DNA of 64,000 bases from Bacillota bacterium (lineage in GTDB: Bacteria > Bacillota > Dethiobacteria > DTU022), in the NCBI GenBank assembly GCA_033549065.1, contig JAWSUE010000012.1, positions 5,222 to 69,221 on the forward strand, read 5' to 3'. Each line of letters begins with the position of its first letter. The first letter of the stretch is position 1. Made by a program: the position numbers and the translations under genes. The notes under the pieces were generated by a model. That model did not search any database, was not told the DNA's origin, and saw only the letters and a list, made by a program, of their open reading frames with translations. Shown piece after piece: positions 8,532 to 52,546 of this stretch.

Positions 8532-9998
8532 ATGGATAAAGATCAAAATAGAAGGAATGTCCAGCCGGTTAAATTTTCAAAAAAGGTGGACTGGCTGGAT
8601 CCAAATCAGGTTGCCACCATACATCAGGCTTCAGTGGATATATTAAGCAAGATCGGAATCAAGATGCCCCACCCAAAAGTTCAACAAATACTGGGTCAGG
8701 CAGGTGCAAGAACTAACAGCACAAGCGGAAAAGTATATATCCCCGAAAAGTTAATTGAAGAGGCCATAAAAAAGGCTCCACAGACTTTTACCCTGGCTGC
8801 CAGGAACCCGGTTAATGACCTGCCGGTTAATGGTGAGTTTGGATACCTTTCGTTAGATGGGAGCGGGCTGCAGGTAATAGACCTGACCAGTGGAGAACTG
8901 CGCAGGTCAACATTGAAGGATCTTGAGGAAGCAGTTACTGTTGCCGATTATTTGAAAGAGATTTCTTTTCTCTGGCCGGTTATCAGCGCCCAGGATCGTC
9001 CCAAGAAGAAACAGCCGCTTTATGAATTATACGCCCAGCTGGCCAATTCAACAAAACATGTCCAGGCGATGACTGCGGTTGATCCTGAAGCGGCAGAAGG
9101 TTCAATCAGAATTGCCAAAGCAGTTGCCGGAAGCTCCGCGGCTCTGCGAAACCGTCCGATAATCTCTAATTTCCAGTGCAGCATCAGTCCCCTTGCTTAC
9201 GATCCTGAAGGGCTGGAAGCAGCAATGATCTTTGCCGATGCCGGTATACCAACCGGTTTTTTAACGATGCAGATCGGCTGTTCAACAGCTCCGGCAACCC
9301 TGGCCGGCAGTCTGGCCCAGGCTAATGCTGAAATCCTGGCCGGGATTGTCTTCCTCCAAACATATAAACCAGGCTGCCCGACTTTTTACGGTTCATGTGC
9401 CACAGTAATGGAACTGCATTCCGGAGCAGTTTGCTGTGGAGGCCCCGAAGACTTTTTGCTGCAGGCAATGTCTGCCCAGATGGCGCGCTACTATAATCTG
9501 CCTTCGAATATCGGCACCTTTGCCACCGGTGCTAAAGCATCAAACTGGCATGCCGGAGTTGAAAATGCCCTTTCGGGGATGTCAAGCATAATGGCCGGTG
9601 CTGATATGATGTGCGGGGCAGGGTTACTGGCCGGAGCATTAATATTTTCCTTCGAGCAGCTTTTGATGGACTGTGAGATATTTGAAATTATCAGGCGTTC
9701 AACCGAAAAGATTATTGTCGATGAAAATACTTTGGCTCTGGAGACAATTGCCGCTGTGGGATCTGACGACCATTTCATGGTTGAACCGCATACCCTGAAG
9801 CATATGCGGGAACTCTGGCAGCCTGCAGTAATGAACCGCAGTCCTTATGGCAAATGGCAGACTGAAGGCTGTCGTGAAGCTGAAGAAAATGCCCGGGAAA
9901 AGGCCTGGTGGATTCTTGAAAATCACAAGCCTGATCAGCTTGACGATAAGCTTAAGGCTGAAATTATAAACATAATCGAAGATCATAGCCAGCACTAG
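8532..9998 (+). CDS. MttB-superfamily (trimethylamine methyltransferase family) methyltransferase, pyrrolysine-free paralog 1
   Basis: 488 aa with full-length MttB-family similarity and no in-frame amber codon. The ATG immediately follows the stop of the upstream gene, and a GAGGT SD is present. Confidence 0.85.
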   Translation: MDKDQNRRNVQPVKFSKKVDWLDPNQVATIHQASVDILSKIGIKMPHPKVQQILGQAGARTNSTSGKVYIPEKLIEEAIKKAPQTFTLAARNPVNDLPVNGEFGYLSLDGSGLQVIDLTSGELRRSTLKDLEEAVTVADYLKEISFLWPVISAQDRPKKKQPLYELYAQLANSTKHVQAMTAVDPEAAEGSIRIAKAVAGSSAALRNRPIISNFQCSISPLAYDPEGLEAAMIFADAGIPTGFLTMQIGCSTAPATLAGSLAQANAEILAGIVFLQTYKPGCPTFYGSCATVMELHSGAVCCGGPEDFLLQAMSAQMARYYNLPSNIGTFATGAKASNWHAGVENALSGMSSIMAGADMMCGAGLLAGALIFSFEQLLMDCEIFEIIRRSTEKIIVDENTLALETIAAVGSDDHFMVEPHTLKHMRELWQPAVMNRSPYGKWQTEGCREAEENAREKAWWILENHKPDQLDDKLKAEIINIIEDHSQH

Positions 9999-18937: not shown

Positions 18938-20512
18938 TTGCAAAACGGAGGTAGTCTTTATACAAAACCAACATTTTTAATTGCTCTTATCGTAATGGTA
19001 ATCTTTGTTTTATTAGGTGCTGCTGCGCCGGAGGCTTTTGGTGTCGCAACAGGTAATGTTTTTAGCTATATGGTTGATTCTTGGGGCTGGTCGTTTATCC
19101 TTGGCACCAGTATCTTTCTTTTTTTGATAGTTTTCTTACTGCTAAGTCCTGTTGGTGAGATTAAACTTGGTGGAGACGATGAGAAGCCCGCATACAACAA
19201 TGAAGTCTGGTTTGCTATGCTCTTCAGCTGCGGCATGGGTATCGGCCTGCTTTTCTGGGGTGTATCCGAGCCGATCTGGCATTACATGTGGCCGCCGCTT
19301 GGAGAAGCTGGTAATGCCGGGACTATTCACGTGGCTATGCGCTATGCTTTCTTCCACTGGGGCTTCCACCCCTGGGCTATTTATGCAGTAGTGGCCGGCT
19401 CACTGGCCTACTTCTCTTACCGCAAAGGTTTGCCCATGCTGCTCAGTTCATGCCTGGAGCCTATCCTTGGCCGTAAAGGAATTGAAGGTCCCTGGGGTAT
19501 TCTGGTAAATATCATCGGTGTATTTGCCACCCTCTTCGGCCTGGCCACATCGTTGGGTCTCGGGGCTATGCAGCTTGGCGCCGGATTGGAAAGCCTTTTC
19601 GGTATTCCTAGCACTCCGGCAATTTGGGTTACTATTGTGATAGTTATAACTGCCGCAGCGGTTATCTCAACTTCGACCGGTATTGATCGCGGCATTAAGT
19701 GGTTGAGCCAGATTAATATCGTGGTAGCCGGTTTGTTGATGCTGTTGGTATTTATTGTCGGTCCGACCCTCTTTATTCTTAACCTTTTAACCCACTCTGT
19801 CGGTGATTATCTGCAGAATATCATCTACATGTCGTTCGGACTTGATGCTGCCGGAGAAAATACTGAAGGTTGGTATGGAGCCTGGACCATCTTCTACTGG
19901 GCCTGGTGGATTGCCTGGGCACCTTTTGTAGGTACCTTTATTGCCCGTATTTCGAGAGGCCGGACGATCCGCAACTTTATTGTCGGTGTTATGCTTGTTC
20001 CTGTTGCTGTCAGCGTTGTCTGGTTCTCCGTTTTTGGTGGTTCAGCCCTCTGGATGGAGCACTTTGGCGGTGGCGGTATCGGGGAAGCAGTATCAGCTGA
20101 TTCCGCGATGGGTTTCTTTGCCTTGTTGCAGAATCTGCCGTGGTCTGGCTTACTGATAGTTGTTGCCATGTTTTCGGTGGCAGTGTTCTTCATTACATCC
20201 TCAGACTCGGGGACCTATGTTAATGGTATGCTTACATCAGGCGGAGATCCTAACCCGCCTCTGCCCCTGAGGATTACCTGGGGAGTTCTTGAAGGAGCTA
20301 TCGCTGCCATTCTGCTCTTTACCGGCGGCGCCGGTGCTTTGGGTTCACTTCAGACAGCATCTGTTGTTGGAGGGTTTCCCTTCATGATTATTATGTTCCT
20401 GATGCTATACTGCCTTTTCAAGTCACTCTATGCAGAGATGCGCGATGGTACTCTACCTCTGGAGAAAAAGCGGATCCAGGATGCTCTGAAGGAATTGCAA
20501 GCTGGTAAATAA
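18938..20512 (+). CDS. BCCT family (betaine/carnitine/choline) transporter
   Basis: Twelve-TM profile and the BCCT signature region WTIFYWAWWIAWAPFVG. TTG start with an AAGGAGG SD. Confidence 0.9.
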   Translation: MQNGGSLYTKPTFLIALIVMVIFVLLGAAAPEAFGVATGNVFSYMVDSWGWSFILGTSIFLFLIVFLLLSPVGEIKLGGDDEKPAYNNEVWFAMLFSCGMGIGLLFWGVSEPIWHYMWPPLGEAGNAGTIHVAMRYAFFHWGFHPWAIYAVVAGSLAYFSYRKGLPMLLSSCLEPILGRKGIEGPWGILVNIIGVFATLFGLATSLGLGAMQLGAGLESLFGIPSTPAIWVTIVIVITAAAVISTSTGIDRGIKWLSQINIVVAGLLMLLVFIVGPTLFILNLLTHSVGDYLQNIIYMSFGLDAAGENTEGWYGAWTIFYWAWWIAWAPFVGTFIARISRGRTIRNFIVGVMLVPVAVSVVWFSVFGGSALWMEHFGGGGIGEAVSADSAMGFFALLQNLPWSGLLIVVAMFSVAVFFITSSDSGTYVNGMLTSGGDPNPPLPLRITWGVLEGAIAAILLFTGGAGALGSLQTASVVGGFPFMIIMFLMLYCLFKSLYAEMRDGTLPLEKKRIQDALKELQAGK

Positions 20513-21257: not shown

Positions 21258-21301
21258 TCTAACCGCTCTTAAACCAAGTGGAGAAAGGAGAATTTGGGAA
21301 A

Positions 21302-22756
21302 ATGAAAAGTTGCTTTAAAGCACAGGGATCAACTTTCCTGCAGGTTCTCTCGGACGACCAGTGCCGGCGGTTGGTAGCAGCGGCGATGGAAGTTTTGGAA
21401 AGGACCGGAGTTACATATTTAGACGATGAAGCAGTTGACAGGATGAAAAAAGCAGGTTGCTATGTAGACGGTAAAAGGGTTCGGATACCTTTTAAGCTGG
21501 TTGAGAAAGCCCTGAACACTGTTCCGAGAAAGGTTTCACTCTGCAACAGCAGGACCGGTAAAAGGGTTATGGAGATGGAAGGCGGGAATGCTTATTTCGG
21601 AACCGGTTCCGATACTCCCAATTTTATTGATCCTTACACCCAGGAGAGAATTAAAGCAAGCAGGAAGACTGTTCAAATGGCCACCAAGGTCATCGATGCA
21701 CTTCCCAATCTTGATTTTGTAATGTCCCTGGGTATTGTCCAGGATGTTCACCAGCTGGTATACGATCGCTACCAGTTCGAAGCCATGGTCCTGAATACTT
21801 CCAAGCCGATCGTTATTACTGCGATCGATGAGCCAGGCTATTCAGATATCATCAAAATGTGCGAGTTGATAGCCGGCGGGGAAGAGGAATTGAGGAACCA
21901 CCCGTTTCTTACTCTTTATGCAGAGCCGATTTCACCCCTGCAGCACCCCAATGATTCAGCGCGCAAGCTGATGTTGGCAGCGAAGAAGGGACTACCTGTT
22001 GTATATACACCGTGTATCATGGCCGGCGGAACAGTACCGGCTACACTGGCCGGAGCCATGGCTAACGGTCTGGCCGAAAGCCTGAGCGGTTTGGTTCTTA
22101 ACCAGGTGACATCGGAGGGCAGCCCGTTCATCATGGGCGGCGTATTTACCGTTATGGATATGCAGACCACCATATTCTCATATGGTTCACCGGAATTTGA
22201 TCTGATGATGGCTGCTCTGGCAGATATTCATCATTATCTTGATCTTCCCATGTTCGGCACCTGCGGATGTACTGATGCAAAAGTTGTTGACGAACAGGCT
22301 TTGATTGAGGGTGCAATGTCAATTCTGCTTACAGCTCAGGCAGGAGCAAACCTGAACCATGATGTGGGATATATTGAGCATGGTAATACAGCATCGCTTG
22401 AATACCTGACAATCTGTGACGATTTAATTGGTATTGCCCGCAAGATAGTCAGCGGTATTGAGGTAAGCGACAAAACCCTGGCCCTTGATGTAATTGACAA
22501 AGTTGGCCCGGGCGGACACTTCCTCGGTGAGGAGCATACAATGAAGCACTTCAAGGAGCAGACCTGGTATCCCCGCTTGTTTGAGCGCCAGATCTATGAA
22601 AATTGGGCTGCCGACGGTTTTAAAACTCTCTTTGATAAAGCCAATGATAAAGTAATAGATATTCTCGAAAATTATGAACCTGAGCCTCTGCCGAAAGATG
22701 TGCAGCAGAAGATCAAGGATATCATTGCCGAAGCAGAATCTAAATTGAACAAGTAA
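21302..22756 (+). CDS. MttB-superfamily methyltransferase, pyrrolysine-free paralog 2
   Basis: Full-length MttB-family similarity with no amber codon. I prefer the ATG at 21302, 11 nt after GAGAAAGGAG, over the RBS-less GTG at 21278. Confidence 0.85.
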   Translation: MKSCFKAQGSTFLQVLSDDQCRRLVAAAMEVLERTGVTYLDDEAVDRMKKAGCYVDGKRVRIPFKLVEKALNTVPRKVSLCNSRTGKRVMEMEGGNAYFGTGSDTPNFIDPYTQERIKASRKTVQMATKVIDALPNLDFVMSLGIVQDVHQLVYDRYQFEAMVLNTSKPIVITAIDEPGYSDIIKMCELIAGGEEELRNHPFLTLYAEPISPLQHPNDSARKLMLAAKKGLPVVYTPCIMAGGTVPATLAGAMANGLAESLSGLVLNQVTSEGSPFIMGGVFTVMDMQTTIFSYGSPEFDLMMAALADIHHYLDLPMFGTCGCTDAKVVDEQALIEGAMSILLTAQAGANLNHDVGYIEHGNTASLEYLTICDDLIGIARKIVSGIEVSDKTLALDVIDKVGPGGHFLGEEHTMKHFKEQTWYPRLFERQIYENWAADGFKTLFDKANDKVIDILENYEPEPLPKDVQQKIKDIIAEAESKLNK

Positions 22757-27347: not shown

Positions 27348-27409
27348 TTTTTCAGATATCTCTTGTTTAAAGCTTTATGCTTCATAAATCTTACTATGTG
27401 GAGGTTGCC

Positions 27410-29074
27410 ATGAGTAAAAACATGATTGATTTGCTCAGTAAAGCAAAATGGTATGACCTGACTCAGCCTCTAAGCATTTTTACTCCCCCCTGGCCTGGTG
27501 AGATGCCGCTGCAGGTTCATTTTTTCAAGCGGGTCACCGGTTCTTATCATGGTGGGCAGGGCGCAAACGGTCAGTTGATCGAATGGTCGAATAATACGGG
27601 GACCCACCTTGTCGGACCGAGAGCTTTTCATTCGGGCATGAAGACGATAGCCGATATCCCCCTGGAGGACATCTGCGGCGAAGGTGTTATTGTCGATATT
27701 TCAGCTGATGTATCTGATTACAGTCTTTATACCCCGGAAATGATCGAGAAACGGGTTACAGTAAAAGAAGGCGATATCCTGCTTATTAACACCGGCTACC
27801 ATAAATATACCTTTGATCAGCCGGATGTTAAAAACCCGAAAGGGCAGGGAGGAATTGATAACAAGGAATTTTCCTACCTGGTTCGCCACCCCGGTCCCGC
27901 ACCCGGATTTTTTGAATGGGCTTTGAAAAAGAAACTGAAAGTTATTGGCGTTGACTGCGGTTGTGCCGAACACCCAATGAATACCAATATCCGCTATATG
28001 CATGCAGCAGAATTCAAGAAAGCTGAAGATAAACTGAAGGAAACTCATGGTAAAACCTGGGATGAAATGTTCCCGGTCGATGAGTATTATAAGCTGACTC
28101 ATCAAACTATGCCCAAAGCCGGGTTGCTTCTGGCCGAATCTTTGGGGGGGCAGATTAAAGAGCTGAACAATCAGCGAGCCTGGATCATAATCGGGGCACT
28201 ACCTTTCGTAGAAGTGGAATCAGCCTGGTCAAGGGTTGCCGCGGCTAAGGCTCCTGATGGAGTAAGCGAAGATGAGTTTTTTGCAGCGATGAATAAAGCA
28301 AAACTTTATGATCTCTCAGTACCCTTCAGTGTGCAGACACCACAGTGGGCAAACTATATCCCACTTATTGCTCATTACACCAAGCGTGTAGGCGGGCAGT
28401 ATTTCGGCTTAGGTCGTAATAATGCCCACTGTAAGTGCAGCTTCCACATTGCAACCCACATGGATGGTGAACCTCACTTCTACATTAACGGAAAAACGAT
28501 TGGTCAGACCCCCTTTGAATACTGGATCGGCCCTGCCGCTATTGCCGATATATCAGAAATGGTCAGCGATACCAGTGTATACAGCCCCGAGATGATCGAA
28601 TCGGTAGTTGATGTAGAAGAAGGAGACATCCTTATCGTCAAGACCGGATATGGGAAATATGGCTGGGCTAGCCCTGATTCGGATGAATTCAGGTACATGA
28701 TCCGCCATCCAGGTCCTTCGCCGGACTTCGCTGAATGGTGCATGAAGAAGAAGATCAAGTGGCTCGGCATTGACTGTGTGGCCATGGAACACCCGATGAA
28801 TACGATCCAGCGTATCTTCCATCCGAAGACCTTTGAAGAAGCAAACCGGAAACTGAAAGAGAAGTACGGTAAGGACTGGGATGAAATGTACCCGCTGGAC
28901 AAGTACTACCAGGATATGCACCTCAATCTCTTCCCGCATGGTGTTGTCCATGCCGAAAACCTGGGCAAGGATCTAAATGATCTGGAAGGTGGCCGTTACT
29001 TCCTCGGCTGTTTCCTCCAGCGAGGAATGGAACTTGCTTCATGCTGGGCACGTTTTATAGCCTGGAAAGAGTAA
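27410..29074 (+). CDS. tandem-duplicated cyclase-family (kynurenine formamidase-like, PF04199-type) metal hydrolase
   Basis: Two homologous halves of about 270 aa (for example HPGPAPGFFEWALKKKLKVIGVDCGCAEHPMNT versus HPGPSPDFAEWCMKKKIKWLGIDCVAMEHPMNT). A GGAGG SD lies 5 nt upstream of the ATG at 27410. Confidence 0.7.
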   Translation: MSKNMIDLLSKAKWYDLTQPLSIFTPPWPGEMPLQVHFFKRVTGSYHGGQGANGQLIEWSNNTGTHLVGPRAFHSGMKTIADIPLEDICGEGVIVDISADVSDYSLYTPEMIEKRVTVKEGDILLINTGYHKYTFDQPDVKNPKGQGGIDNKEFSYLVRHPGPAPGFFEWALKKKLKVIGVDCGCAEHPMNTNIRYMHAAEFKKAEDKLKETHGKTWDEMFPVDEYYKLTHQTMPKAGLLLAESLGGQIKELNNQRAWIIIGALPFVEVESAWSRVAAAKAPDGVSEDEFFAAMNKAKLYDLSVPFSVQTPQWANYIPLIAHYTKRVGGQYFGLGRNNAHCKCSFHIATHMDGEPHFYINGKTIGQTPFEYWIGPAAIADISEMVSDTSVYSPEMIESVVDVEEGDILIVKTGYGKYGWASPDSDEFRYMIRHPGPSPDFAEWCMKKKIKWLGIDCVAMEHPMNTIQRIFHPKTFEEANRKLKEKYGKDWDEMYPLDKYYQDMHLNLFPHGVVHAENLGKDLNDLEGGRYFLGCFLQRGMELASCWARFIAWKE

Positions 29075-29140
29075 TCTCAAAAAGAAGGGCGGGGGAGCGC
29101 CCCGCCAAGAGGTGGATTTAAGCCTCAAAAATTTATATAT

Positions 29141-29175
29141 AACCGGTTGGATCTACTCAACCGGTTTATTTTTTT
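29141..29175. terminator. bidirectional terminator hairpin AACCGGTTG...CAACCGGTT
   Basis: The stem overlaps the stop codon of the minus-strand gene. It is followed by T8 on the plus strand and by an A/T-rich stretch with T5 on the minus strand. Confidence 0.5.
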
Positions 29176-30316
29176 TCAGTTCAACTGTATCATCGTTGGC
29201 CTGCTTTTTCATTGTTCGGCTAATATAAAATGTAATCATGTAATAAACAGCTAAACCGGCAAGAAATCCAAATGCCATGTTGGTTAAAACTGAAACTAAA
29301 ACAGTTACAGCCAGGACAATCATATTCCAGTTTAACGAAACATCTCTTGAAAATTTAATCAGTTCTATACCAACCATAAACATCATTGCACCGATAATTG
29401 CCATGGGGAATAGTGCAAAAAGGCCGGCGATTGAAGTGGCCAGTAAAATACCCATAGCAATTTCGATCATGCCTTCAATAATATTTGCTCCTCCGGTTCG
29501 GGCTCCGAAGTAATATTGGCCAGCCAAACCACCGGCTCCATGACATAAAGGCATGCCGCCTAAAAAAGGAAATAGAATATTCATTAATCCCATATTCAAA
29601 GATAAACGTCCTTCGCCAACTGACCGGCCAGGAAAGTATGAGTTTATCAAAGATGATGTTGATATCACAGCGTTGGTTGCTGTCAGCGGTATTTGAGCAA
29701 ATCCAGCTAAAAGCATGGTTTCCCAGACTTCAATAGGCTTAAAGAAAGTCATGGAGGGCAGTGAATATTCCAGGCCGCTCAAATCAGTTAAGTCTCCCCT
29801 GAAGTACATGATTGCTATACCTAAAACCACCAGAGTAACAGCTGCCGGCATGTAACGATTATTACGAAGCAGTAGTATAACTATAACCGATATGATGCCG
29901 AGCAACCAAAAATCAGAGACCATTTTTAGCGCTTCAATTGCCAGTAATCCTCCGAGAGCAACCTGAATCCCGCGTATTACAGATTTCGGAGTAAACCGGG
30001 CTATATGCTTCATTAACCCTGTTAGTGCAAAAATAATCCAGACAATTCCCATCCCAAAGCCTGAAGCATAGACCATTGATGGAGTCCAACCCTGGGCTAT
30101 GGCGACAACTGCCAAAACTTTCATCGGTTCGATTGGCATGGGCAATTTATATATCAGCCCTGTAATGATATTGGCCAGACCTATAGTTACCAGTAAACCT
30201 GAAGGGTTTAAACCACATACTACAATATAACCTATGGCGAGAGGTATTAATGTTCCAAAATCTCCCATAGCCCCTGATAGTTCTCTTAAATTAAATTCAT
30301 ATGCTCCGATTTGCAT
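29153..30316 (-). CDS. putative molybdate/tungstate (or sulfate-type) transporter, MOT1/SulP-related membrane protein
   Basis: About 11 TM helices with an N-terminal ELSGAMGDFGTLIPL motif. It is co-directional with and immediately downstream of tupC. Confidence 0.45.
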   Translation of the reverse strand: MQIGAYEFNLRELSGAMGDFGTLIPLAIGYIVVCGLNPSGLLVTIGLANIITGLIYKLPMPIEPMKVLAVVAIAQGWTPSMVYASGFGMGIVWIIFALTGLMKHIARFTPKSVIRGIQVALGGLLAIEALKMVSDFWLLGIISVIVILLLRNNRYMPAAVTLVVLGIAIMYFRGDLTDLSGLEYSLPSMTFFKPIEVWETMLLAGFAQIPLTATNAVISTSSLINSYFPGRSVGEGRLSLNMGLMNILFPFLGGMPLCHGAGGLAGQYYFGARTGGANIIEGMIEIAMGILLATSIAGLFALFPMAIIGAMMFMVGIELIKFSRDVSLNWNMIVLAVTVLVSVLTNMAFGFLAGLAVYYMITFYISRTMKKQANDDTVELKKNKPVE

Positions 30317-30333
30317 GTTGTACCCTTATCAAT

Positions 30334-31119
30334 TTAGTAAATCATACGACCTTCAACGAAAGCTTTTGTTTGTTCTGTTTTCGGAGTTTTAAATATATCT
30401 TCTGTTTTACCTGTTTCTATAATTTTACCCTGATTGATGAATATCACATGATTGGCAATCCTTTTGGCCTGGAAAATATTATGGGTTACCATCATGACAG
30501 TAATTGATTTAGACAAATTTAACTTACAGATTAATTTTTCAATAAGTTCAACATTAATAGGGTCAAGGTTAGCTGTCGCTTCATCCAGTAATAATAGTTC
30601 GGGCTCAAATGCTATAGCCCTGGCAACTGCAACTCTTTGTGCTTCTCCCCCTGATAAAGTGTCGGCTCTTCTTCTGGCCAGTTCTTGTAAACCAACCTGG
30701 TCCAGTAGAGTAGTAACTCGTTCATGAATTTCTTTATGCGGGTAGTTTCTCGCTTTTAATCCATATGACACGTTATTATAAACACTATCTTTGAAGAGTA
30801 AAGTTTTTTGAAAAACCATTGACATTTTACGCTGTATAGTGAGACGATCCTGACCATTTGAAGGCAAGGGGCTGCCTTTATAAAGGATGCTTCCCTGATC
30901 CGGCATGGTGAGCAGGTTGATTATCCGTAGAAGGGTGCTTTTTCCGGCTCCGCTGGGACCAATAATTCCATAAATTTTACCCTTCTGAATTGTGAGATTA
31001 TTAATACTCAATACTTCTTTATCGTATTTTTTTATTATATTGGCTAATTCAAATAAATTATTATCGGGATTAATTGTTTTTGCCCCCCTTCTGAATTGTA
31101 TAGAGTAAAGAATTGACAA
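30334..31119 (-). CDS. tupC: ABC transporter ATP-binding protein (tungstate TupC-like)
   Basis: Walker A GPSGAGKST, signature LSGGEAQRV and Walker B LLLLDE. TTG start. The 50-nt overlap with tupB makes the start uncertain. Confidence 0.75.
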   Translation of the reverse strand: MSILYSIQFRRGAKTINPDNNLFELANIIKKYDKEVLSINNLTIQKGKIYGIIGPSGAGKSTLLRIINLLTMPDQGSILYKGSPLPSNGQDRLTIQRKMSMVFQKTLLFKDSVYNNVSYGLKARNYPHKEIHERVTTLLDQVGLQELARRRADTLSGGEAQRVAVARAIAFEPELLLLDEATANLDPINVELIEKLICKLNLSKSITVMMVTHNIFQAKRIANHVIFINQGKIIETGKTEDIFKTPKTEQTKAFVEGRMIY

Positions 31120-31768
31120 TAAAGGAGAGTAGCAGAAGAATGATACCGAGTCCGATGGCCAGTTCGAAATTCCCTTTGCGTGTTTCCAGGGTTATGGCGG
31201 TTGTCATAACCCTGGTATGACCGGCAATATTACCGCCAACAATCATTACCGCTCCCACTTCGGCCACGATTCTACCAAATCCGGTGATGATTGCTCCAAG
31301 CAAAGCGTACCGAGATTCTTTTATGACGGTCCGAATGGCCATGGAAGAACTGGCCCCGAGGGATCGGGCGACTTCTTCTATTTCACTGCCTTTAGCCCGG
31401 ATGCCGACCATGGTTAAGCCTGTAATGATTGGCGATGATAAAAATACCTGGGCTATGATCATTGCTGCAGGAGTGTAAAGAATTCCAAGTACGCCAAGCG
31501 GTCCCTGTCGGGAAAGAATTAAGTAAATGATCAAACCAGCCACAACCGGAGGCATTCCCATAAAAGTAAATATTACTTTATTCAGTAACCGGGTTTTCTT
31601 CTCAGGTTTTAAACCCAGTATGGCGCCGAGGGGTATACTAATTAATGATGAAATGATAATAGCTGTTCCGGATACCCTGAGCGATAAGAGGACAATCTGC
31701 AGTAATTCAGGATCAAAAGCGATAATTAAACGAAAGGCTTCGATAATACCCTCAAATAAACGTGACAA
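31070..31768 (-). CDS. tupB: ABC transporter permease (tungstate TupB-like)
   Basis: Single-domain ABC type-I permease with a five-TM profile. Confidence 0.8.
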   Translation of the reverse strand: MSRLFEGIIEAFRLIIAFDPELLQIVLLSLRVSGTAIIISSLISIPLGAILGLKPEKKTRLLNKVIFTFMGMPPVVAGLIIYLILSRQGPLGVLGILYTPAAMIIAQVFLSSPIITGLTMVGIRAKGSEIEEVARSLGASSSMAIRTVIKESRYALLGAIITGFGRIVAEVGAVMIVGGNIAGHTRVMTTAITLETRKGNFELAIGLGIILLLLSFIVNSLLYTIQKGGKNN

Positions 31769-31896
31769 AAATACACCTCCGCAAGAATAACTTGATAATG
31801 ATCAACACATTGTTAATTCCAGACAAATAATTTGGATGTAATGCTCAATATCAAGTTATTTCCAAATCTTAAAAAGGGGACATGCTTCAACTGCAC

Positions 31897-32808
31897 TTAT
31901 TCAAGGCCATAACCCGGGAAAAAGAGGGTTTCTCCATTTACCTGGTAAGAATTGATCAGGTTTTGACCTTCATCTGACATCAAGAACTCAATATACATCA
32001 TTGCGTATTCATACTTGGCATGTGAATGCAACTCCGGATTAACAGCCATAACACCATATTGGTTAAAGAGGACCGGGTCGCCTTCCAGCACGATCACCAG
32101 ATCCAGAGTATCTTTCATGGCTACATAGGTGCCGCGGTCAGTCAGGGTATACCCGAGTGATTCATTGGCAACGTTCAGGGTATCACCCATACCTTGCCCG
32201 ATGGATAAATACCAGCTTTCACCGGTTGGATCAATACCTGCGCTATCCCAGAGTCGTAATTCCATTCTGTTAGTTCCCGAATCATCACCTCGTGAAACAA
32301 AGGTGTTACCGCTATCTTCTATTAAATTAAATGCTTCAACAGCAGTGCTCACAGCTTTGATCCCTGCGGGATCATCATCGGGGCCGACAAAAATAAAATC
32401 ATTGTACATAACATCGTAACGGTCAACAAATGCACCTTCGTCGACAAGCCTCAGTTCCGAAACCCGGTCATGAACCAGTAAAACATCTGCATCTCCGCGT
32501 GCTCCCGTTTCCAATGCTGCACCGGTTCCCTGGGAAACGACCTGTACTTCAATACCGGTTTGTTCAGTAAAAATAGGATTCAGAAAATCAAGCAGGCCCG
32601 AGTCGTAGGTGCTTGTGGTGGTTGCCAGGATTATGGTGTCGATGATTTCAACTTCCTCCGGGGTCTCCTCCGGGACTTCTTCCGGTTCTTCTTCGGGTTC
32701 TGCTTCCGGGGTTGTATCCTGGGCACAACCGGCTGTAAACATCAAGAGACCAAATACCAATGAAAATAAAACAAAGAATAGTAGTAATGAATTTTTTCGG
32801 TAAAGCAT
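31897..32808 (-). CDS. tupA: tungstate ABC transporter substrate-binding lipoprotein TupA
   Basis: A lipoprotein signal (LLMFTAGC) and the TupA TTTS anion-binding motif (ILATTTSTYDSGLLD). I prefer the ATG at 32808, which has an AGGAGG SD 7 nt upstream. Confidence 0.8.
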   Translation of the reverse strand: MLYRKNSLLLFFVLFSLVFGLLMFTAGCAQDTTPEAEPEEEPEEVPEETPEEVEIIDTIILATTTSTYDSGLLDFLNPIFTEQTGIEVQVVSQGTGAALETGARGDADVLLVHDRVSELRLVDEGAFVDRYDVMYNDFIFVGPDDDPAGIKAVSTAVEAFNLIEDSGNTFVSRGDDSGTNRMELRLWDSAGIDPTGESWYLSIGQGMGDTLNVANESLGYTLTDRGTYVAMKDTLDLVIVLEGDPVLFNQYGVMAVNPELHSHAKYEYAMMYIEFLMSDEGQNLINSYQVNGETLFFPGYGLE

Positions 32809-32974
32809 GTTTTTTCCTCCTGAATTTGATTTGCTATTACTTTTATTGTAGGACAAGAATTAATTTATATTACCCTTTCACCGGTCTGCAGCGGTTATTT
32901 GTTATACTGCCTCCTTTCCGGGTTGTATATTTTGTAATAAAGGTTGTGAACATGCTCTATCATTCAATGGTCTT

Positions 32975-33007
32975 AAATTAAAAAAGCATTCTCCTCCCGA
33001 AGAATGC
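32975..33007 (-). terminator. intrinsic terminator/expression-platform hairpin downstream of riboswitch-like element A
   Basis: In the minus sense, GCAUUCU-UCGGGAGG-AGAAUGC is followed by UUUUUUAAUUU. It lies between element A and tupA. Confidence 0.5.
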
Positions 33008-33030
33008 GGCCTGACATAAAAGCATGATCA

Positions 33031-33132
33031 AACCTTCTTTCCGCACTGGGAGGCACCGTTGTTTCCAACTGTACCCTAACGTCCACTAGCCATGGTGATC
33101 ATATAAACACTTTAGGCTTGATGGATCGAAGG
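33031..33132 (-). promoter_or_regulatory. structured RNA element A, putative Moco/tungsten-cofactor (Moco RNA motif) riboswitch in the tupABC leader
   Basis: A ~100-nt element closed by a CCUUC/GAAGG helix. It is about 65% identical to element B, shares the UGCCUCCCA...GGAAAGAAGG segment, and is followed by a terminator. Confidence 0.5.
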
Positions 33133-33157
33133 TAAATATTTAGTTATATTCAAAATA

Positions 33158-33361
33158 TTACTTACCCACCATTACCGAACTGGCTTTGATAATTGCATAA
33201 GCCTCATCACCGACTTTTAAGTCCATTGTTTTTGCCGAACCGGTTGTAATGCTGGATACAATATTAATGCCGTTAATTTCAATGGTGACTTCTGTCGAAA
33301 CCGGACCTTCCTTAACCTGAGTAATTTTACCTTTCAATTGATTTCTTGCTGATAGTTTCAT
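33158..33361 (-). CDS. mop: molybdopterin/molybdate-binding Mop (TOBE-domain molbindin)
   Basis: 67 aa with a TOBE domain. An AAGGAGG SD lies upstream. Confidence 0.85.
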   Translation of the reverse strand: MKLSARNQLKGKITQVKEGPVSTEVTIEINGINIVSSITTGSAKTMDLKVGDEAYAIIKASSVMVGK

Positions 33362-33383
33362 TAATTTTTACACCTCCTTCCGT

Positions 33384-33418
33384 ACAAAAAAACCGCATTT
33401 CCCCACTTTGGAAATGCG
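33384..33418 (-). terminator. intrinsic terminator/expression platform between riboswitch-like element B and mop
   Basis: In the minus sense, a 9-bp CGCAUUUCC/GGAAAUGCG stem is followed by GUUUUUUUG, immediately 5' of the mop SD. Confidence 0.6.
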
Positions 33419-33441
33419 ATTATACTCACTAAATATGAGTG

Positions 33442-33542
33442 AACCTTCTTTCCACAATGGGAGGCACAGCCGTTTCCAGCCATACCCTGCCGGCCATTTC
33501 TCGTGGCCTGAGCGAAGCGCTTTAGAGAAAATGGTTCGAAGG
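33442..33542 (-). promoter_or_regulatory. structured RNA element B, putative Moco/tungsten-cofactor riboswitch in the mop leader
   Basis: A paralogous copy of element A with a GGCCA-N7-UGGCC internal hairpin. The genomic context (mop, tupABC, W-type AOR) matches known Moco RNA motif associations. Confidence 0.5.
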
Positions 33543-33639
33543 AACTGCTTATTCGGTTTGCTTACATGTGCATTTTATAACAAAGAGAATTTGCAGTCAA
33601 GTCCTATAGAGGCTATGATAAGAATAATAATTCGAACAG

Positions 33640-34287
33640 GTGATTCTCGCCATGGAAAAACTTAGCTGTTTTTTATGCCATGCCCCGGCCTTATATTTTT
33701 CTACTCACAGGGGTAGAGATTACTTGAAATGCAGTGGTTGCCAATCTGTGATGCTATCACCTGAAAACTATCTTTCACCGGCTGAAGAAAAAGAAAGATA
33801 CGATCAACATAATAATGATGTTTCTGACCCAGGTTACAGGCTTTTTGTCCAACCATTGGTTCGTGCTGTAATCAATAAATATTATCCGGAAGACAGCGGG
33901 CTCGATTACGGCGCAGGTTCAGGACCGGTTGCATCATATCTGCTTAAGGAGAGGGGATATCAAACCCTGTTGTATGATCCTTTCTACTGGCCTGATCATT
34001 CGGTTTTAGAAGCACGATATAATTATATAATCTGTTCGGAAGTGATCGAACATTTTCATTCCCCACAAAATGAATTCAGACTGATGCGTTCACTTCTGTT
34101 GCCCGGGGGTTCGCTATTTTGCATGACCGAACTCTACGACGATGAATTTGAATTTGAAAAGTGGTATTATAAAAATGACCCCACTCATGTATTCTTCTAT
34201 CATCGCGAAGCTTTTCAGTGGATTAAAAAAAGGTTTGGCTTCAGCGAGCTCACAATGAAAAAGAGGTTAATTACCCTTTCGCTTTAA
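33640..34287 (+). CDS. class I SAM-dependent methyltransferase with N-terminal Cys4 zinc-finger
   Basis: A CFLCH...CSGC zinc finger, SAM motif I DYGAGSG, and methyltransferase type-11/12-like motifs. The start could be the GTG at 33640 or the ATG at 33652. Confidence 0.65.
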   Translation: MILAMEKLSCFLCHAPALYFSTHRGRDYLKCSGCQSVMLSPENYLSPAEEKERYDQHNNDVSDPGYRLFVQPLVRAVINKYYPEDSGLDYGAGSGPVASYLLKERGYQTLLYDPFYWPDHSVLEARYNYIICSEVIEHFHSPQNEFRLMRSLLLPGGSLFCMTELYDDEFEFEKWYYKNDPTHVFFYHREAFQWIKKRFGFSELTMKKRLITLSL

Positions 34288-34429
34288 TCATTTGTAAGAT
34301 TATTTTATTCCCGATTCATAAAATCAAAAAATGTATTAAAGGAATTATTTTATTTTTGGGAGAATTATTTTAAATTAATATTCTATCATATACAGCCTCC
34401 CCAAAGTCGTTTGAAGGAGTTGATACAGT

Positions 34430-35851
34430 TTGTCAATACTGCGAGTAATCATCGTTGAGGATTCAGAAGATGATCTGCTATTGATCCTGCGAGCACTTAA
34501 AAAAGGTGGTTTTGAGCCTATCTATAGATGTGTTGAAACAGAAGAAGCTTTGCGTGCAGCCCTGGATGATCCTCAGTGGCAGTTGATCATCTCCGATCAC
34601 GCCATGCCCAGGTTCAGTGCGCCTGGAGCCCTGAAAGTTTTAAAAGAAAGTGGAAGAGATTTGCCTTTTATTATTGTTTCTGGAACGATCGGTGAGGAAA
34701 TTGCTGTAAATGCCATGAAGGGCGGAGCTCATGACTATATTATGAAGAGTAACCTCTCCCGCCTGGTTCCTGCTATTGAACGCGAATTACGTGAAGCCGA
34801 TGTGAGAAATCAGCACCGTCAGTACCAGAAGCAGCTCGAGTACCTTACCCTACACGATCAATTAACCGGTCTATATAATAGGGTATATTTTGAAAATGAG
34901 CTTGCCAAGCTTGATGGGGGTAACGAGTACCCGGTTGCTGTAATTTCCGCAGACCTGGACGGATTGATGCTTATAAATGAAACCTTTGGCCAGAAGGAAG
35001 GCGATATGATTTTGAAAACCTGCGCAAATTTATTGAAAAAACCACTCAGAAAAAGCGACATATTGGCCAGGGTTGGTGGTGATGAATTTATCACTCTGTT
35101 ACTGCGTTCAGATACTAACAGGTGTGAAAAGATTGTTGCCCAGATCACCCATGAAATAAACGAACTCAATAAAGAGCACGGAAGGATACCGATCAGCGTT
35201 TCAATCGGTTGTTCAATCTGTCATGACCAATCCGAAAAACTCGACGACTGCATTAAAGAAGCCATAAGCAAAATGCGTTTTGAAAAACAGAATCGTGCGG
35301 AAAGCGCCCGCAGCCAGGTAGTGAATGCATTATTGGCTGCACTTTCAGAACGGGATTATATCGCAAGCGGGCATGCCGAAAGAATACAGGAGCTATGCAG
35401 GAAAATGGCAGAAGAGGTGGGTTTGGACCAGCAAGCCCAAGCTGCTCTTTCCATGCTTTCCCAGGTACATGATCTAGGGAAAGTGGGAATCCCTGACCAG
35501 ATTTTATTTAAAAAAGGTGGACTGACAGAGGAAGAATGGGAAATTATGCGGCAGCACCCTGAAAAAGGTTACCGGATTGCCCAGTCATCACCCGAATTGG
35601 CTCATATAGCAGATCTGATCCTTCGCCATCACGAAAGATTTGATGGTAGTGGATATCCACTGGGTCTGCAGGGTGAAGAAATTCCGATTGAATGCCGGAT
35701 TCTATCAATTGTAGATTCTTATGATGCTATGACAAATGACCGGCCTTACCGGAAAGCGATGACCAGGGATGAAGCGCTGGCCGAAATCAGACTCTATGCA
35801 GGCAGCCAGTTTGATCCCGTATTGGCCGATATATTTTTAAAAATTGTTTAA
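34430..35851 (+). CDS. response regulator with REC, GGDEF and HD-GYP domains
   Basis: A REC domain (phospho-acceptor context IISDHAMP), a GGDEF domain (RVGGDEF) and an HD-GYP domain (HHERFDGSGYP). Confidence 0.85.
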   Translation: MSILRVIIVEDSEDDLLLILRALKKGGFEPIYRCVETEEALRAALDDPQWQLIISDHAMPRFSAPGALKVLKESGRDLPFIIVSGTIGEEIAVNAMKGGAHDYIMKSNLSRLVPAIERELREADVRNQHRQYQKQLEYLTLHDQLTGLYNRVYFENELAKLDGGNEYPVAVISADLDGLMLINETFGQKEGDMILKTCANLLKKPLRKSDILARVGGDEFITLLLRSDTNRCEKIVAQITHEINELNKEHGRIPISVSIGCSICHDQSEKLDDCIKEAISKMRFEKQNRAESARSQVVNALLAALSERDYIASGHAERIQELCRKMAEEVGLDQQAQAALSMLSQVHDLGKVGIPDQILFKKGGLTEEEWEIMRQHPEKGYRIAQSSPELAHIADLILRHHERFDGSGYPLGLQGEEIPIECRILSIVDSYDAMTNDRPYRKAMTRDEALAEIRLYAGSQFDPVLADIFLKIV

Positions 35852-35998: not shown

Positions 35999-36092
35999 GG
36001 GAGTAGTTAGCGGCCTGGTGGCGTTCCTGGACTTCAAATCCAGTGGCAGGGCAGCCCCCTGCGGTGGGTTCGATTCCCATCTACTCCCGCCA
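35999..36092 (+). tRNA. selC: tRNA-Sec (selenocysteine tRNA), anticodon UCA
   Basis: 94 nt with an 8-bp acceptor stem (GGAGTAGT/ACTACTCC), anticodon loop CUUCAAA, a long variable arm, a GGTTCGATTCC T-arm, discriminator G and an encoded CCA. Confidence 0.85.
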
Positions 36093-50791: not shown

Positions 50792-52546
50792 CTAAAGGTT
50801 CAATTCTGTTTTCTTGGCTTTGCTTATCCGGCCATTGTCTTCCCAACCGCGCAGTTTGTAATATTCAGAGAGCATTTTTTCGTATTCCTCTCGCGGCAGA
50901 AGTTTGCCTTCAGTTGCACCGGTGGTCAGTTCTTCTTTATATATGCGCTCGGGCAGGTAATCATCTTTACGCACGAAGCCTTCCCTTTCGTTGAAAAGGC
51001 GGGCTAGGTTATTAATCCGCTCTCCGATTTTGATCAGATCATCGGCAGAAATTTCCCTGTTCAGAAGTGAACTCAGAATTTCAGCCATTCGCTCGGTGCT
51101 GAGAGCCCAAAAATCACAGAATATAGCTGAGAATTTAACTGAATTAATTTCTTGCAGATCAATAACCAGTTTAGCCTTACCTTCGCTGGTAAAAGGATCA
51201 ATATCTCCGAATGCTTCCACAGCAGCCGGCCAGGCTCTCATGTGACAGGCTCCGCGGTCGGCAGTGCCGTAAGCCAGCCCCATTGACCATGATCCTCTCG
51301 GCTCGTAACCCGGTATTTCAAGGCCTTTTACCTGCATGGCAAAGTCAGAGCCTCCATACTTTTCTGCCATGGCCCTGACTCCCATGGCCAGATCAGCGCC
51401 AACGCCTTCTTTACGGGCAATTAATCCGGGCATTTCCAAATATCTTTCCACCTGGCCGAACCTGATGTCAAAGTCATGGATGCTCTTTTCAGTAAGTTCC
51501 ATGGCAAAGGCAACAGCGTTACCGGCCGATATTGTATCTAAACAGTGATCATCGCAAAGACGATTAAATTCCATTACTGCTTCCAGATCACCTATTCCGC
51601 AGTTGGATCCACAAAGCGCAAGTGTTTCATATTCCGGTCCCTCAACCCGGGTGTTACCTTTAACGACATAGTTGCTGCAGGCCAACGGGCAGGCGAAACA
51701 GGCTTTTTTGGCTTTAAGGAAACTTTTAACTGCTTCGGAATTTACACCTTCATAATCGTCAAAAGTACCTTCCTGAAAGTTGCGGGTAGGAAGGATCCCG
51801 GTTGACTGGCTTAAATCGACAATCATGGGGGTCCCGTCACTGTAAGCCCACATGTTATCATCGGTCATCGTATCTTCACGCTTTATTTTATTCATGGCAG
51901 CAGAAAATTTACGGGTATTGGGTATTTTAATCCCCTTGGTACCCCTGACAGAAATTGCTTTCAGGTTTTTACTGCCCATAACGGCGCCAATACCTCCGCG
52001 ACCGGCCTGCCGGTATAGTTCAGAACTGATGCAGGCCATGGGGATAAGATTTTCTCCGGCCTGTCCGATTGCCATGGTAACTACATCTCCCAGAGTATCG
52101 GCAATTATATGCTCTGTTTCATGAGCGCCTTTACCCCAGATCCCTGCGGCACTGCGCAGTTCAACTTTATCGTCTTCAATATAGAGATAAACCGGTATTT
52201 TAGATTTACCTTCAATGATGACAGCATCATAACCGGAGTATTTTATTTCGGCAGATATGTGACCGCCAATAGAACAGTCTAGAATTGTGCCTGTGGCCGG
52301 TGATTTAGCGGCGATAGCGAGCTTCCCCGAGTTGGGTATAATCGTACCCGTCATCGGTCCGGTCATCAAAATCAGTTTATTTTCTTCAGATAGAGGATCA
52401 ATACCCGGTTCCAGTTCTTCGTAGAGATATTTGATACTCAGCCCTTTGCCGCCAAGATAATCATTTGCCCACTGCTCATTCAACGATTCGGTTGTAGCTT
52501 TTCCGGTTGACAGATTAACTCTTAATACTTTTCCGGTATAGGCCAT
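50792..52546 (-). CDS. aldehyde:ferredoxin oxidoreductase (tungsten-containing AOR family)
   Basis: Full-length AOR family protein with the N-terminal AFOR_N domain (MAYTGKVLRVNLSTGK...) and the C-terminal domain. Confidence 0.9.
   Translation of the reverse strand: MAYTGKVLRVNLSTGKATTESLNEQWANDYLGGKGLSIKYLYEELEPGIDPLSEENKLILMTGPMTGTIIPNSGKLAIAAKSPATGTILDCSIGGHISAEIKYSGYDAVIIEGKSKIPVYLYIEDDKVELRSAAGIWGKGAHETEHIIADTLGDVVTMAIGQAGENLIPMACISSELYRQAGRGGIGAVMGSKNLKAISVRGTKGIKIPNTRKFSAAMNKIKREDTMTDDNMWAYSDGTPMIVDLSQSTGILPTRNFQEGTFDDYEGVNSEAVKSFLKAKKACFACPLACSNYVVKGNTRVEGPEYETLALCGSNCGIGDLEAVMEFNRLCDDHCLDTISAGNAVAFAMELTEKSIHDFDIRFGQVERYLEMPGLIARKEGVGADLAMGVRAMAEKYGGSDFAMQVKGLEIPGYEPRGSWSMGLAYGTADRGACHMRAWPAAVEAFGDIDPFTSEGKAKLVIDLQEINSVKFSAIFCDFWALSTERMAEILSSLLNREISADDLIKIGERINNLARLFNEREGFVRKDDYLPERIYKEELTTGATEGKLLPREEYEKMLSEYYKLRGWEDNGRISKAKKTELNL

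Follow-up and report, generated by a model that had tools for sequence, protein, structure and literature searches.

Two switches of the Moco RNA family, both of the P3-lacking (Tuco/Wco) type, probably stand in series in one transcription unit on the minus strand of the DNA analysed, each acting as a transcriptional OFF switch; we put the probability of this reading at about 80%. The window, that is, the whole stretch of 64,000 nucleotides from a Bacillota bacterium, carries the first switch (RS1) ahead of mop, a gene for a molbindin, and the second (RS2) between mop and the genes for a putative tungstate importer. The proposed unit would run from a promoter through RS1, terminator T1, mop, RS2, terminator T2 and the genes for the TupA-like and TupB-like proteins, an ABC ATPase and a MOT1-family permease, all presumably co-transcribed (Table 1). 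RS1 and RS2 are further members of a known RNA family; the element is ordinary and its layout slightly unusual.

Table 1. Coordinates of the features discussed (positions in the window; all on the minus strand)
Feature	Position	Strand	Details
Promoter-like site, sigma-70 type	33572..33600	(-)	TTGACT 33600..33595, 17-nt spacer, TAAAAT 33577..33572; 10/12 matches
RS1, P3-lacking Moco/Tuco-class aptamer	33429..33553	(-)	RF01055 61.7 bits, E 2.1e-12; own model R1 110.6 bits
RS1 P1	33542..33538	(-)	pairs with GAAGG at 33448..33444
RS1 core	33464..33444	(-)	CCUCCCAUUGUGGAAAGAAGG
Spacer hairpin between P1 and T1	33425..33441	(-)	CACUCAUAUUUAGUGAG; from predicted folds
T1, intrinsic terminator	33386..33421	(-)	12-bp stem 33421..33391, 7-nt loop, U7 at 33392..33386
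RS1 antiterminator, 3' strand	33402..33414	(-)	UUUCCAAAGUGGG; predicted to pair with aptamer core CCCAUUGUGGAAA (33461..33449)
mop	33158..33381	(-)	SD GGAAGGAGG 33381..33373, ATG 33361, stop codon ends 33158; 67-aa molbindin, single TOBE/Mop domain; PF03459 TOBE E 1.1e-18; TIGR00638 Mop 81.9 bits (cutoff 55)
RS2, second P3-lacking Moco/Tuco-class aptamer	33018..33143	(-)	RF01055 65.8 bits, E 1.3e-13; R1 108 bits
RS2 P1, 5' strand	33132..33128	(-)	
RS2 core	33053..33033	(-)	CCUCCCAGUGCGGAAAGAAGG
RS2 antiterminator, 3' strand	32996..33009	(-)	CCGCAUUCUUCGGG; predicted to pair with aptamer core CCCAGUGCGG (33050..33041)
T2, intrinsic terminator	32975..33007	(-)	9-bp stem 33007..32986, GGGA loop, then UUUUUUAAUUU (U6AAUUU) at 32985..32975
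Spacer from T2 to tupA start, ~165 nt	32809..32974	(-)	tupA SD AGGAGG 32821..32816
tupA-like periplasmic binding protein	31897..32808	(-)	303 aa, ATG 32808; PF12849 E 3e-43; best NCBIfam NF041772 TupA 220 bits (equivalog cutoff 400 bits)
tupB-like ABC permease	31070..31768	(-)	NF038017 236.6 bits (above cutoff); NF041773 TupB 179 bits (below)
ABC transporter ATPase, tupC position	30334..31119	(-)	PF00005 E 1.3e-34
MOT1-family (MFS_MOT1) putative molybdate/tungstate permease	29153..30316	(-)	PF16983 E 2e-50
AOR-family protein, AFOR_N+AFOR_C	52546..50792	(-)	~17 kb from the riboswitches

Searched by cmscan with Rfam release 15, RS1 and RS2 both scored above the gathering score of 36 bits for RF01055 (Molybdenum/Tungsten riboswitch aptamer, Moco RNA motif) and aligned to the whole of the model (positions 1–135 of 135), while no other Rfam family matched at E ≤ 1 within 28900..34500. 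Neither alignment contained the P3 hairpin (model positions ~64–79 were deleted), and a short linker, CGGC in RS1 and CGUU in RS2, stood in its place. The unpaired conserved core was present in full in both copies, namely the CGA (CCGA-like) junction, CUAA, AGGG, the GGAAAC loop and GCCUCCC...GGAAAG, and these unpaired nucleotides were identical in the two. RS1 and RS2 also share GCCUCCCA-N-UG-N-GGAAAGAAGG and a CCUUC/GAAGG closing helix. They are genuine RF01055 family members of the P3-lacking type. The first-pass annotation had placed two elements on the minus strand here, with a common core and this closing helix, had assigned them to the Moco class and had proposed both a covariance search with RF01055 on that strand and the P3-lacking (Tuco) variant; the search, once run, matched both copies, the variant fits, and the riboswitch class had been correctly recognised from sequence alone. 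Its view of the two elements as similar copies also held, but its figure of about 65% identity was too low, since 33031..33132 and 33442..33542 are 70% identical (73 of 104 columns), as against 49 ± 2.6% for shuffled sequence, with a maximum of 58%.

The aptamer helices were also recovered by comparison. RNAalifold applied to 11 sequences returned P1, P2, P4 and P5, with double changes at 21 of the 30 pairs. For 74 distinct related sequences, whose alignment was fitted to the model, 94.1% of the cells were paired compared with 42–46% when the strands were slid; both-side changes occurred at 20 of the 30 pairs, and the observed value was reached by none of 500 shuffles.

RS1, RS2 and the Mop/TOBE, tupA-like, tupB-like, ATPase and MOT1 genes all lie on the minus strand, with the aptamers placed as 5' leaders in sense orientation. 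The regulated genes had been named as those for a molbindin and a tungstate importer, in agreement with the Mop/TOBE, TupA-like and TupB-like proteins and the ABC ATPase identified here. Specificity of the importer for tungstate over molybdate is putative, because the NCBIfam matches of TupA, TupB and also the ATPase fall under the equivalog cutoffs. The TupA-like product includes the sequence ATTTSTYDSGL; its best genome match, from a Bacillota MAG, was 75% identical, and look-ups of the exact TupA sequence gave no match. The exact Mop sequence was found on one 1.2-kb JGI contig, in which mop is followed by tupA as here. The MOT1-family gene, which the first-pass annotation does not mention, begins 17 nt past the ATPase gene and is the last of the unit; the same tupC–MOT1 order was seen in L002, L098, L102, L106, L132 and L146. 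A gene for an AOR-family protein, which had been described as nearby, is indeed encoded in the window, although at some distance from the switches, and has no Moco motif of its own. AOR-family enzymes are typically tungstoenzymes and, judging from its family, this one probably uses tungsten as well.

Both hairpins with U tracts that had been annotated as terminators were found again by an independent terminator scan, and the order of aptamer, terminator and ribosome-binding site was right, a terminator belonging to each of the aptamers. The SD and start codon follow directly after T1 in the case of mop; those of tupA had likewise been placed right after its terminator, whereas they lie ~165 nt past T2. 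When this spacer was aligned with L001, L003, L004 and L005, no conservation was seen past the terminator, and an extra conserved element before tupA was rejected. A third, degenerate aptamer hinted at by CCCGGAAAGGAGG around 32920 was also rejected, its best R1 match being 6 bits (E 0.81, filters off), with no Rfam match at E ≤ 1.

In each leader, part of the aptamer core can pair with the top of the terminator that follows it, in an alternative helix incompatible with the ligand-bound aptamer as well as with the terminator. The terminator stems alone had energies of -15.2 (T1) and -11.5 kcal/mol (T2), and the antiterminator duplexes, calculated with RNAduplex, -15.9 (RS1) and -14.0 kcal/mol (RS2). 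The antiterminator became the minimum free energy structure of both RS1 and RS2 if the 3' arm of the terminator was absent or blocked, and in the RS1 folds the spacer hairpin became its enclosed loop. In the L107 metagenome contig, which is 97% identical and lacks 152 nt of mop, the RS1-type antiterminator, with one base different in the 3' arm, gave z = -4.3 against the shuffled terminator segment. Pairing between core and terminator in 65 related leaders averaged -13.6 kcal/mol, compared with about -7 for shuffled terminators, and z was below -2 in 50 of them. The base after CCC covaried with the base before GGG (G–C 26, A–U 13, G–U 3, other 13), a covariation limited by the nearly invariant aptamer side, and 82.7% of the antiterminator cells were paired in register as against 34–62% when slid; for both of these tests RNAduplex set the register, a choice that biases towards pairing. 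The U tract after the RS2-type hairpin is interrupted in some relatives. That the antiterminator recurs, and partly covaries, in ~55–65 related sequences implies that these leaders would be switched off at the level of transcription when the ligand is bound, and its conservation in the relatives strengthens the layout of aptamer, terminator and ribosome-binding site.

Most likely, RS1 and RS2 are both OFF switches of the kinetic kind that act on transcription, and this logic would be expected in vivo as well. With the cofactor bound, the aptamer would keep its 3' core CCUCCC-N5-GGAAAG (the P5 mini-hairpin) and the 3' strand of P1; the terminator hairpin would then form, and RNA polymerase would stop at the U tract. 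With the cofactor absent, CCC-N5-GGAAA would pair with the upper 5' arm of the terminator, its loop and the first G's of its 3' arm, and the polymerase would read through the antiterminator so formed. For this clade the gain is a well-supported antiterminator model, in which an invariant CCC-N5-GGAAA core is predicted to pair with the terminator top.

The distance from the end of the promoter-like site to the RS1 match is 19 nt, and in all 10 RS1-type leaders a 10–11/12 match (TTGACN-17-TAnAAT) ends 12–19 nt before the aptamer match. Before RS2 of the window no site reached the thresholds in 130 nt upstream, in a scan by simple consensus match, which could miss a promoter inside mop that is weak or not of the sigma-70 type. 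The RS2 match follows the mop stop codon at a distance of 15 nt, and 285 nt lie between the end of RS1 (33429) and the start of RS2 (33143), each of which has a separate terminator. Since RS2 is without a detected promoter of its own and so close to the end of mop, transcripts of the importer genes probably pass T1 and T2, those of mop only T1. As the cofactor accumulates, importer expression would then drop at lower levels of it and with a steeper slope than molbindin expression, giving a graded output with two checkpoints. More tentatively, and at somewhat less than even odds, the layout promoter–RS1–mop–RS2–tupABC–MOT1 may be a selected circuit with two outputs, in which one ligand is read twice and shut-off comes earlier, and is sharper, for the importer than for the molbindin that buffers tungstate.

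The RS–mop–RS–tupA layout recurred in diverged contigs from metagenomes, at least 10 of them (L091, L093, L108, L121, L128, L134, L137, L140, L148 and L154), and partially in L152; Mop was 67–82% and TupA 73–92% identical in the contigs sharing it. The nearest relatives of the source of RS1 and RS2 are Syntrophomonadaceae and Bacillota MAGs, several of them from soda-lake sediments. In a rough neighbour-joining tree, built on ~125 nt and weak, the RS2-type aptamers of different contigs clustered together and the RS1-type aptamers scattered among single tupA-proximal switches. Moreover, the terminators of L001, L003 and L004 resemble T1 of the window, not T2. Both observations speak against a recent local duplication, and the duplication that gave RS1 and RS2 looks old.

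A different circuit would result if RS1 and RS2 were independent, with a promoter for RS2–tupABC–MOT1 inside or just after mop, so that RS1 controlled mop only and RS2 the importer only. The closest genome relatives do have a single riboswitch with its own promoter before tupA and no mop, a 9/12 match (TTGGCC-17-TACAAT) ends just before RS2 in L091, L093 and L134, where mop and RS2 are 178 nt apart, and T1 would often stop transcripts ahead of mop anyway. However, the window has no qualifying site before RS2 and only 15 nt between the mop stop codon and the RS2 match, the gap is similarly short (7–16 nt) in L108, L137, L140 and L148, and the promoter that stands at a fixed distance before every RS1 is missing from the RS2 leaders; we consider an internal promoter distinctly unlikely. 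Control by translation, instead of or besides termination, would require that CCUUC of P1 or GGAAAGAAGG contact the mop SD. The minimum free energy structure of the whole RS1 leader does pair CAGUUCCUUC with GGAAGGAGGUG of this SD, and sequestration of the SD is found in L009, in E. coli moaA and in E. limosum tupABC (PMC2408646; PMC11725836). The complementarity between CCUUC and the SD is nevertheless trivial, as P1 itself resembles an SD/anti-SD pair, the tupA SD is 165 nt away from RS2, and both leaders have canonical terminators, U tracts and matched antiterminators, which makes translational control very unlikely.

The nature of the ligand was approached through published work. P3-lacking Moco RNAs correlate with Tuco genes, near perfectly so in the case of tupA/tupB and tungsten enzymes, and direct binding of a ligand by the class has so far gone undemonstrated owing to the instability of the cofactor (PMC2408646). 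From this correlation (PMC2408646; PMC11725836) we infer that RS1 and RS2 probably sense the tungsten cofactor (Tuco/Wco). The ligand might instead be Moco or a pterin precursor without metal, or both cofactors might be sensed, in an operon for general Mo/W oxyanion homeostasis: a match to RF01055 fits either of the two ligands, the match to TupA stays below the equivalog cutoff, and the operon carries a MOT1-family 'molybdate transporter' along with the Mop molbindin. Both the MOT1 and the Mop family handle molybdate as well as tungstate. In addition, the P3 rule has exceptions, listed by Regulski et al., and the E. coli RNA did not change specificity when P3 was deleted (PMC2408646). Against this reading, both aptamers lack P3, in line with the near-perfect correlation, and the window shows the gene association of the Tuco subclass: the family that best matches the binding protein is TupA, the best NCBIfam matches to TupA and TupB reach 220 and 179 bits, if below the equivalog cutoff in both cases, and an AOR-family enzyme is encoded. 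P3-less RNAs of E. limosum, too, precede tupABC and genes for tungsten oxidoreductases (PMC11725836). On balance we think a ligand other than the tungsten cofactor unlikely. Even less is to be said for a two-input logic gate, in which RS1 and RS2 would no longer share the same specificity or affinity (one responding, say, to Moco and the other to Wco). Their identity of only 70% and the separate RS2-type cluster in the rough tree, suggestive of an old duplication, could be read in this way; P3 is nonetheless absent from both, the two differ in their stems, with compensating changes, and not in the unpaired core nucleotides, and in a 75%-majority test no column split the 9 RS1-type from the 11 RS2-type copies. 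With no discriminating core positions found, it is unlikely that RS1 and RS2 belong to different ligand classes, and we regard a two-input gate as highly improbable.

Existing knowledge of the Moco motif family is not changed by RS1 and RS2. As aptamers they show no difference from the P3-lacking Tuco/Wco type of the motif (Weinberg 2007; Regulski 2008; PMC2408646), with which they share P1, P2, P4, P5, the core and the loss of P3, and they too precede tungstate-transport genes, in the 5' leader, and have an intrinsic terminator as expression platform; they are additional members from Bacillota. The Moco riboswitch of E. coli moaA belongs to the same RNA family and follows the same OFF logic, but contains a P3 stem, is considered a sensor of Moco rather than Tuco, and controls translation, with the SD inside P1, of genes for cofactor biosynthesis rather than metal uptake (PMC2408646). 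In Eubacterium limosum, Tuco riboswitches lie upstream of tupABC, worABCSL, fetABC and focA, and the terminator-type members are up-regulated (derepressed) under tungsten limitation (PMC11725836). The likeness extends to a P3-less RF01055 element before tupABC and to antiterminator or antisequestor helices that overlap a conserved aptamer helix (PMC11725836); the E. limosum tupABC leader differs in having a predicted RBS sequestor, a single switch and no mop, whereas the window has terminators and two switches.

A close parallel in layout is Syntrophomonas wolfei, where three P3-lacking motifs with terminator platforms are found serially in one operon (PMC2408646), together with the 'pseudo-cooperative' tandem Moco/Wco riboswitches surveyed in PMC9481103, for which a steeper, 'more digital' response is predicted. 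Common to these and to the window are several P3-lacking aptamers of the same class, an operon including molybdate/tungstate transport genes, a terminator for each aptamer and a long gap from the last motif to the next ORF. The survey counted as tandem those aptamers of the same class that have their own platforms, are less than 300 nt apart and have no ORF between them (PMC9481103); the distance here falls within this range, but the Mop/TOBE ORF, with its SD, intervenes, and the L107 version, shortened in mop, would qualify on the last point. Because of this definition, surveys of tandem riboswitches leave out serial switches interrupted by an ORF, and if our reading is true, these would be an architecture missed by design. 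The locus offers a convenient natural system for testing serial riboswitches with the same ligand and the Wco-versus-Moco specificity of P3-less aptamers. From its conserved switch–gene–switch arrangement one would expect a metal-storage protein and a metal importer to differ in their dose-responses although one promoter serves both: in contrast to S. wolfei and the tandem switches, a 67-aa mop ORF lies between the two switches here, and there would be two outputs, mop behind one checkpoint and the importer behind two.

Both RS1 and RS2, the two putative aptamers of the minus-strand unit, were recognised as Moco RNAs. When the whole window was searched by cmscan against Rfam release 15, four matches exceeded the gathering score, and two of them were to RF01055 (Moco RNA motif; gathering score 36), on the minus strand and over the full model. 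The Moco class, which the first-pass annotation had assigned while proposing such a search, is thus borne out, as is its suggestion of the P3-lacking variant: the P3 hairpin of the model was deleted in both alignments. A permissive search (E ≤ 1) yielded no other Rfam family in 28900..34500. The two paralogous elements were present where they had been placed, although their identity (33031..33132 against 33442..33542) was 70% (73/104 columns; shuffled sequence, 49 ± 2.6%) and not the ~65% estimated earlier. Reading the minus strand of 32700..33800, we found that they have in common GCCUCCCA-N-UG-N-GGAAAGAAGG and a CCUUC/GAAGG closing helix.

The helical structure of RS1 and RS2 is supported by sequence comparison with relatives. 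The RNAalifold consensus of 11 aptamers (two from the window, nine from related genomes) contained P1, P2, P4 and P5, with compensatory changes in 21 of 30 pairs. In an alignment of 74 distinct related sequences, which was fitted to the model and so favours pairing, 94.1% of cells were paired, compared with 42–46% when the partners were slid, and two-sided change was seen in 20/30 pairs.

Features of the riboswitch unit and the AOR-family gene
Feature	Coordinates	Strand	Description
Promoter-like site	33600..33572	-	TTGACT-17-TAAAAT, upstream of RS1
RS1 (aptamer)	33553..33429	-	RF01055, 61.7 bits, E 2.1e-12, model 1-135
T1 (terminator)	33421..33391	-	12-bp stem, then seven U; -15.2 kcal/mol alone; consensus scan
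mop SD	33381..33373	-	GGAAGGAGG, 3' of RS1
mop	33361..33158	-	67-aa Mop/TOBE molbindin; PF03459, E 1e-18; TIGR00638, 81.9 bits (cutoff 55)
RS2 (aptamer)	33143..33018	-	RF01055, 65.8 bits, E 1.3e-13, model 1-135
T2 (terminator)	33007..32986	-	9-bp stem, then UUUUUUAAUUU; -11.5 kcal/mol alone; consensus scan
TupB-like permease gene		-	follows tupA-like gene
ABC ATPase gene		-	follows TupB-like gene
MOT1-family transporter gene	29153..30316	-	PF16983 ('molybdate transporter of MFS superfamily'), E 2e-50; 17 nt past ABC ATPase; last gene of unit
AOR-family gene	52546..50792	-	aldehyde:ferredoxin oxidoreductase family (AFOR_N + AFOR_C)

An independent consensus scan recovered both of the hairpin/U-tract terminators described earlier. 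When the leaders were folded without the 3' arm of the terminator, or with that arm blocked, the minimum free energy structure was an alternative helix in which the core of the aptamer base-pairs with part of the terminator, namely its upper 5' arm, its loop and its first G residues (CCCAUUGUGGAAA with UUUCCAAAGUGGG in RS1, -15.9 kcal/mol; CCCAGUGCGG with CCGCAU...GGG in RS2, -14.0 kcal/mol); when the complete terminator was included, it consisted of the aptamer helices and the terminator. The core segment used by this antiterminator comprises the P5 mini-hairpin and the invariant GGAAAG, and aptamer folding and the antiterminator are therefore mutually exclusive, as are the antiterminator and the terminator. 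Such exclusion fits the ligand-bound OFF logic published for the Moco RNA family (PMC2408646).

The same pairing was seen among relatives. For the 65 leaders in which a terminator could be recognised, the duplex between the core and the leader's own terminator segment averaged -13.6 kcal/mol (about -7 for shuffled segments), with z<-2 in 50/65. The variable base after CCC covaried with the base before GGG (G-C 26, A-U 13, G-U 3, other 13). When the two strands were aligned without gaps, 82.7% of cells paired in register and 34–62% when slid. These comparisons are limited by an aptamer strand that hardly varies and by a register that RNAduplex had anchored. In four loci (L108 547-671, L140 3314-3438, L121 3136-3261 and L148 1548-1672) the U tract of the hairpin that follows the RS2-type aptamer (the one between mop and tupA) was interrupted (e.g. 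UUGAUUUAUU) or not recognisable; relative to that of the window, their second checkpoint may be weaker or may work differently.

We favour a single transcript with two checkpoints, because a promoter-like site precedes every RS1-type leader (upstream of mop), none qualified in the 130 nt upstream of the window's RS2, and the gaps between mop and RS2 are short. The RS1-type sites matched TTGACN-17-TAnAAT at 10–11 of 12 positions and ended 12–19 nt upstream of the aptamer match. Most RS2-type leaders likewise had no qualifying site, and the gap was 7–16 nt in several loci; in the window RS2 begins 15 nt past the mop stop codon. The exceptions were L091, L093 and L134, in which 9 of 12 positions matched and the gap after mop was longer. 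On a single transcript, mop expression would require read-through at T1, and expression of the importer genes read-through at both T1 and T2, so that the importer would be expected to shut off earlier and more steeply than the molbindin. By a 75%-majority test no column separated RS1-type from RS2-type aptamers, and a shared ligand is thus the simplest assumption.

This layout is conserved across a clade rather than being a one-off, judging from its recurrence when the window proteins were mapped onto other loci. A core-pattern scan of metagenomes gave 76 loci, and searching these and the window with a covariance model derived from alignment A3 gave 88 matches. The order RS-mop-RS-tupA was found in L091, L093, L108, L121, L128, L134, L137, L140, L148 and L154, and partially in L152, with identities of 67–82% for Mop and 73–92% for TupA. 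A single RF01055 RNA preceded tupA in 9/19 loci scanned, none of these nine having mop. When TupA was compared with one genome per species (confirmed by tblastn), no genome proved identical, and the best matches were MAGs labelled Bacillota (75%) and Syntrophomonadaceae (66–72%), several of them from soda-lake sediments. Metagenome contig Ga0068714_10045666 (L107) is 97% identical to window 35342..32591 and lacks 152 nt of mop (window 33353..33202), not a multiple of three, which leaves RS1 and RS2 in true tandem, 132 nt apart; the deletion is either a natural variant or an assembly artefact. In TupA the contig shows a further difference, a 48-nt in-frame indel affecting the acidic linker.

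Among the genes of the unit, mop had been named correctly as a molbindin gene, on both the Pfam and the TIGRFAM match. The start of tupA does not directly follow T2, as had been implied: a spacer of ~165 nt precedes the SD AGGAGG and the ATG at 32808. The best NCBIfam match of the encoded protein was TupA, at 220 bits, under the 400-bit equivalog cutoff. We infer the metal specificity of the transporter. The order tupC-MOT1 also occurs in L002, L098, L102, L106, L132 and L146. The MOT1 product would be a second oxyanion permease, not of the ABC type, under putative Wco control, and to our knowledge no such permease has been characterised. A GC-rich hairpin, GGGCGGGG-GAGC-CCCCGCC (about 29085..29110), between the MOT1 gene and a convergent cyclase-family gene (27377..29074, +), is likely a bidirectional terminator ending the unit.

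P3-less Moco RNAs often lie upstream of AOR-type genes in other organisms. The window does hold an AOR-family gene, as the first-pass annotation had said, although it lies ~17 kb from the unit rather than nearby, and the whole-window cmscan gave no RF01055 match upstream of it. Divergent from the unit and adjoining the RS1 promoter is a Methyltransf_23 gene (33640..34287, +), a neighbour conserved at 48–58% identity in L110, L117, L133, L140 and L141. A selenocysteine tRNA gene (35999..36088, +; RF01852, 72.3 bits), followed by DsrE-like and C_GCAxxG_C_C genes, lies ~2.4 kb from that promoter. An Rfam match to PYLIS_3 (pyrrolysine insertion sequence, mttB; 22268..22367, +, 45.9 bits) falls within an uninterrupted 492-aa ORF (21278..22756) with UGU at the model's UAG position; the ORF probably encodes a non-pyrrolysine MttB-family methyltransferase, and the match would then reflect coding homology and not a signal for recoding. 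Genes close by encode a BCCT transporter (18938..20512) and a further MTTB protein (8532..9998).

Taken together, the observation made from the sequence was confirmed and its interpretation is supported, with minor corrections. Regulski et al. described P3-lacking Moco RNAs, found them to correlate almost perfectly with tupA/tupB and W enzymes, and reported terminator-type platforms as well as three P3-lacking motifs with terminators arranged serially in one operon of S. wolfei, with a long gap to the first ORF (PMC2408646). In E. limosum, P3-less RF01055 RNAs lie upstream of tupABC and other operons, and those of the terminator type are derepressed under W limitation (PMC11725836). Since P3-lacking, terminator-type and serial Moco RNAs have already been described, RS1 and RS2 add two members to a known class, and the way they are arranged comes close to the known serial cases. 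A survey of tandem riboswitches lists tandem Moco and Wco cases and accepts none with an intervening ORF (PMC9481103); the window departs from its definition on that single criterion, because mop sits between RS1 and RS2.
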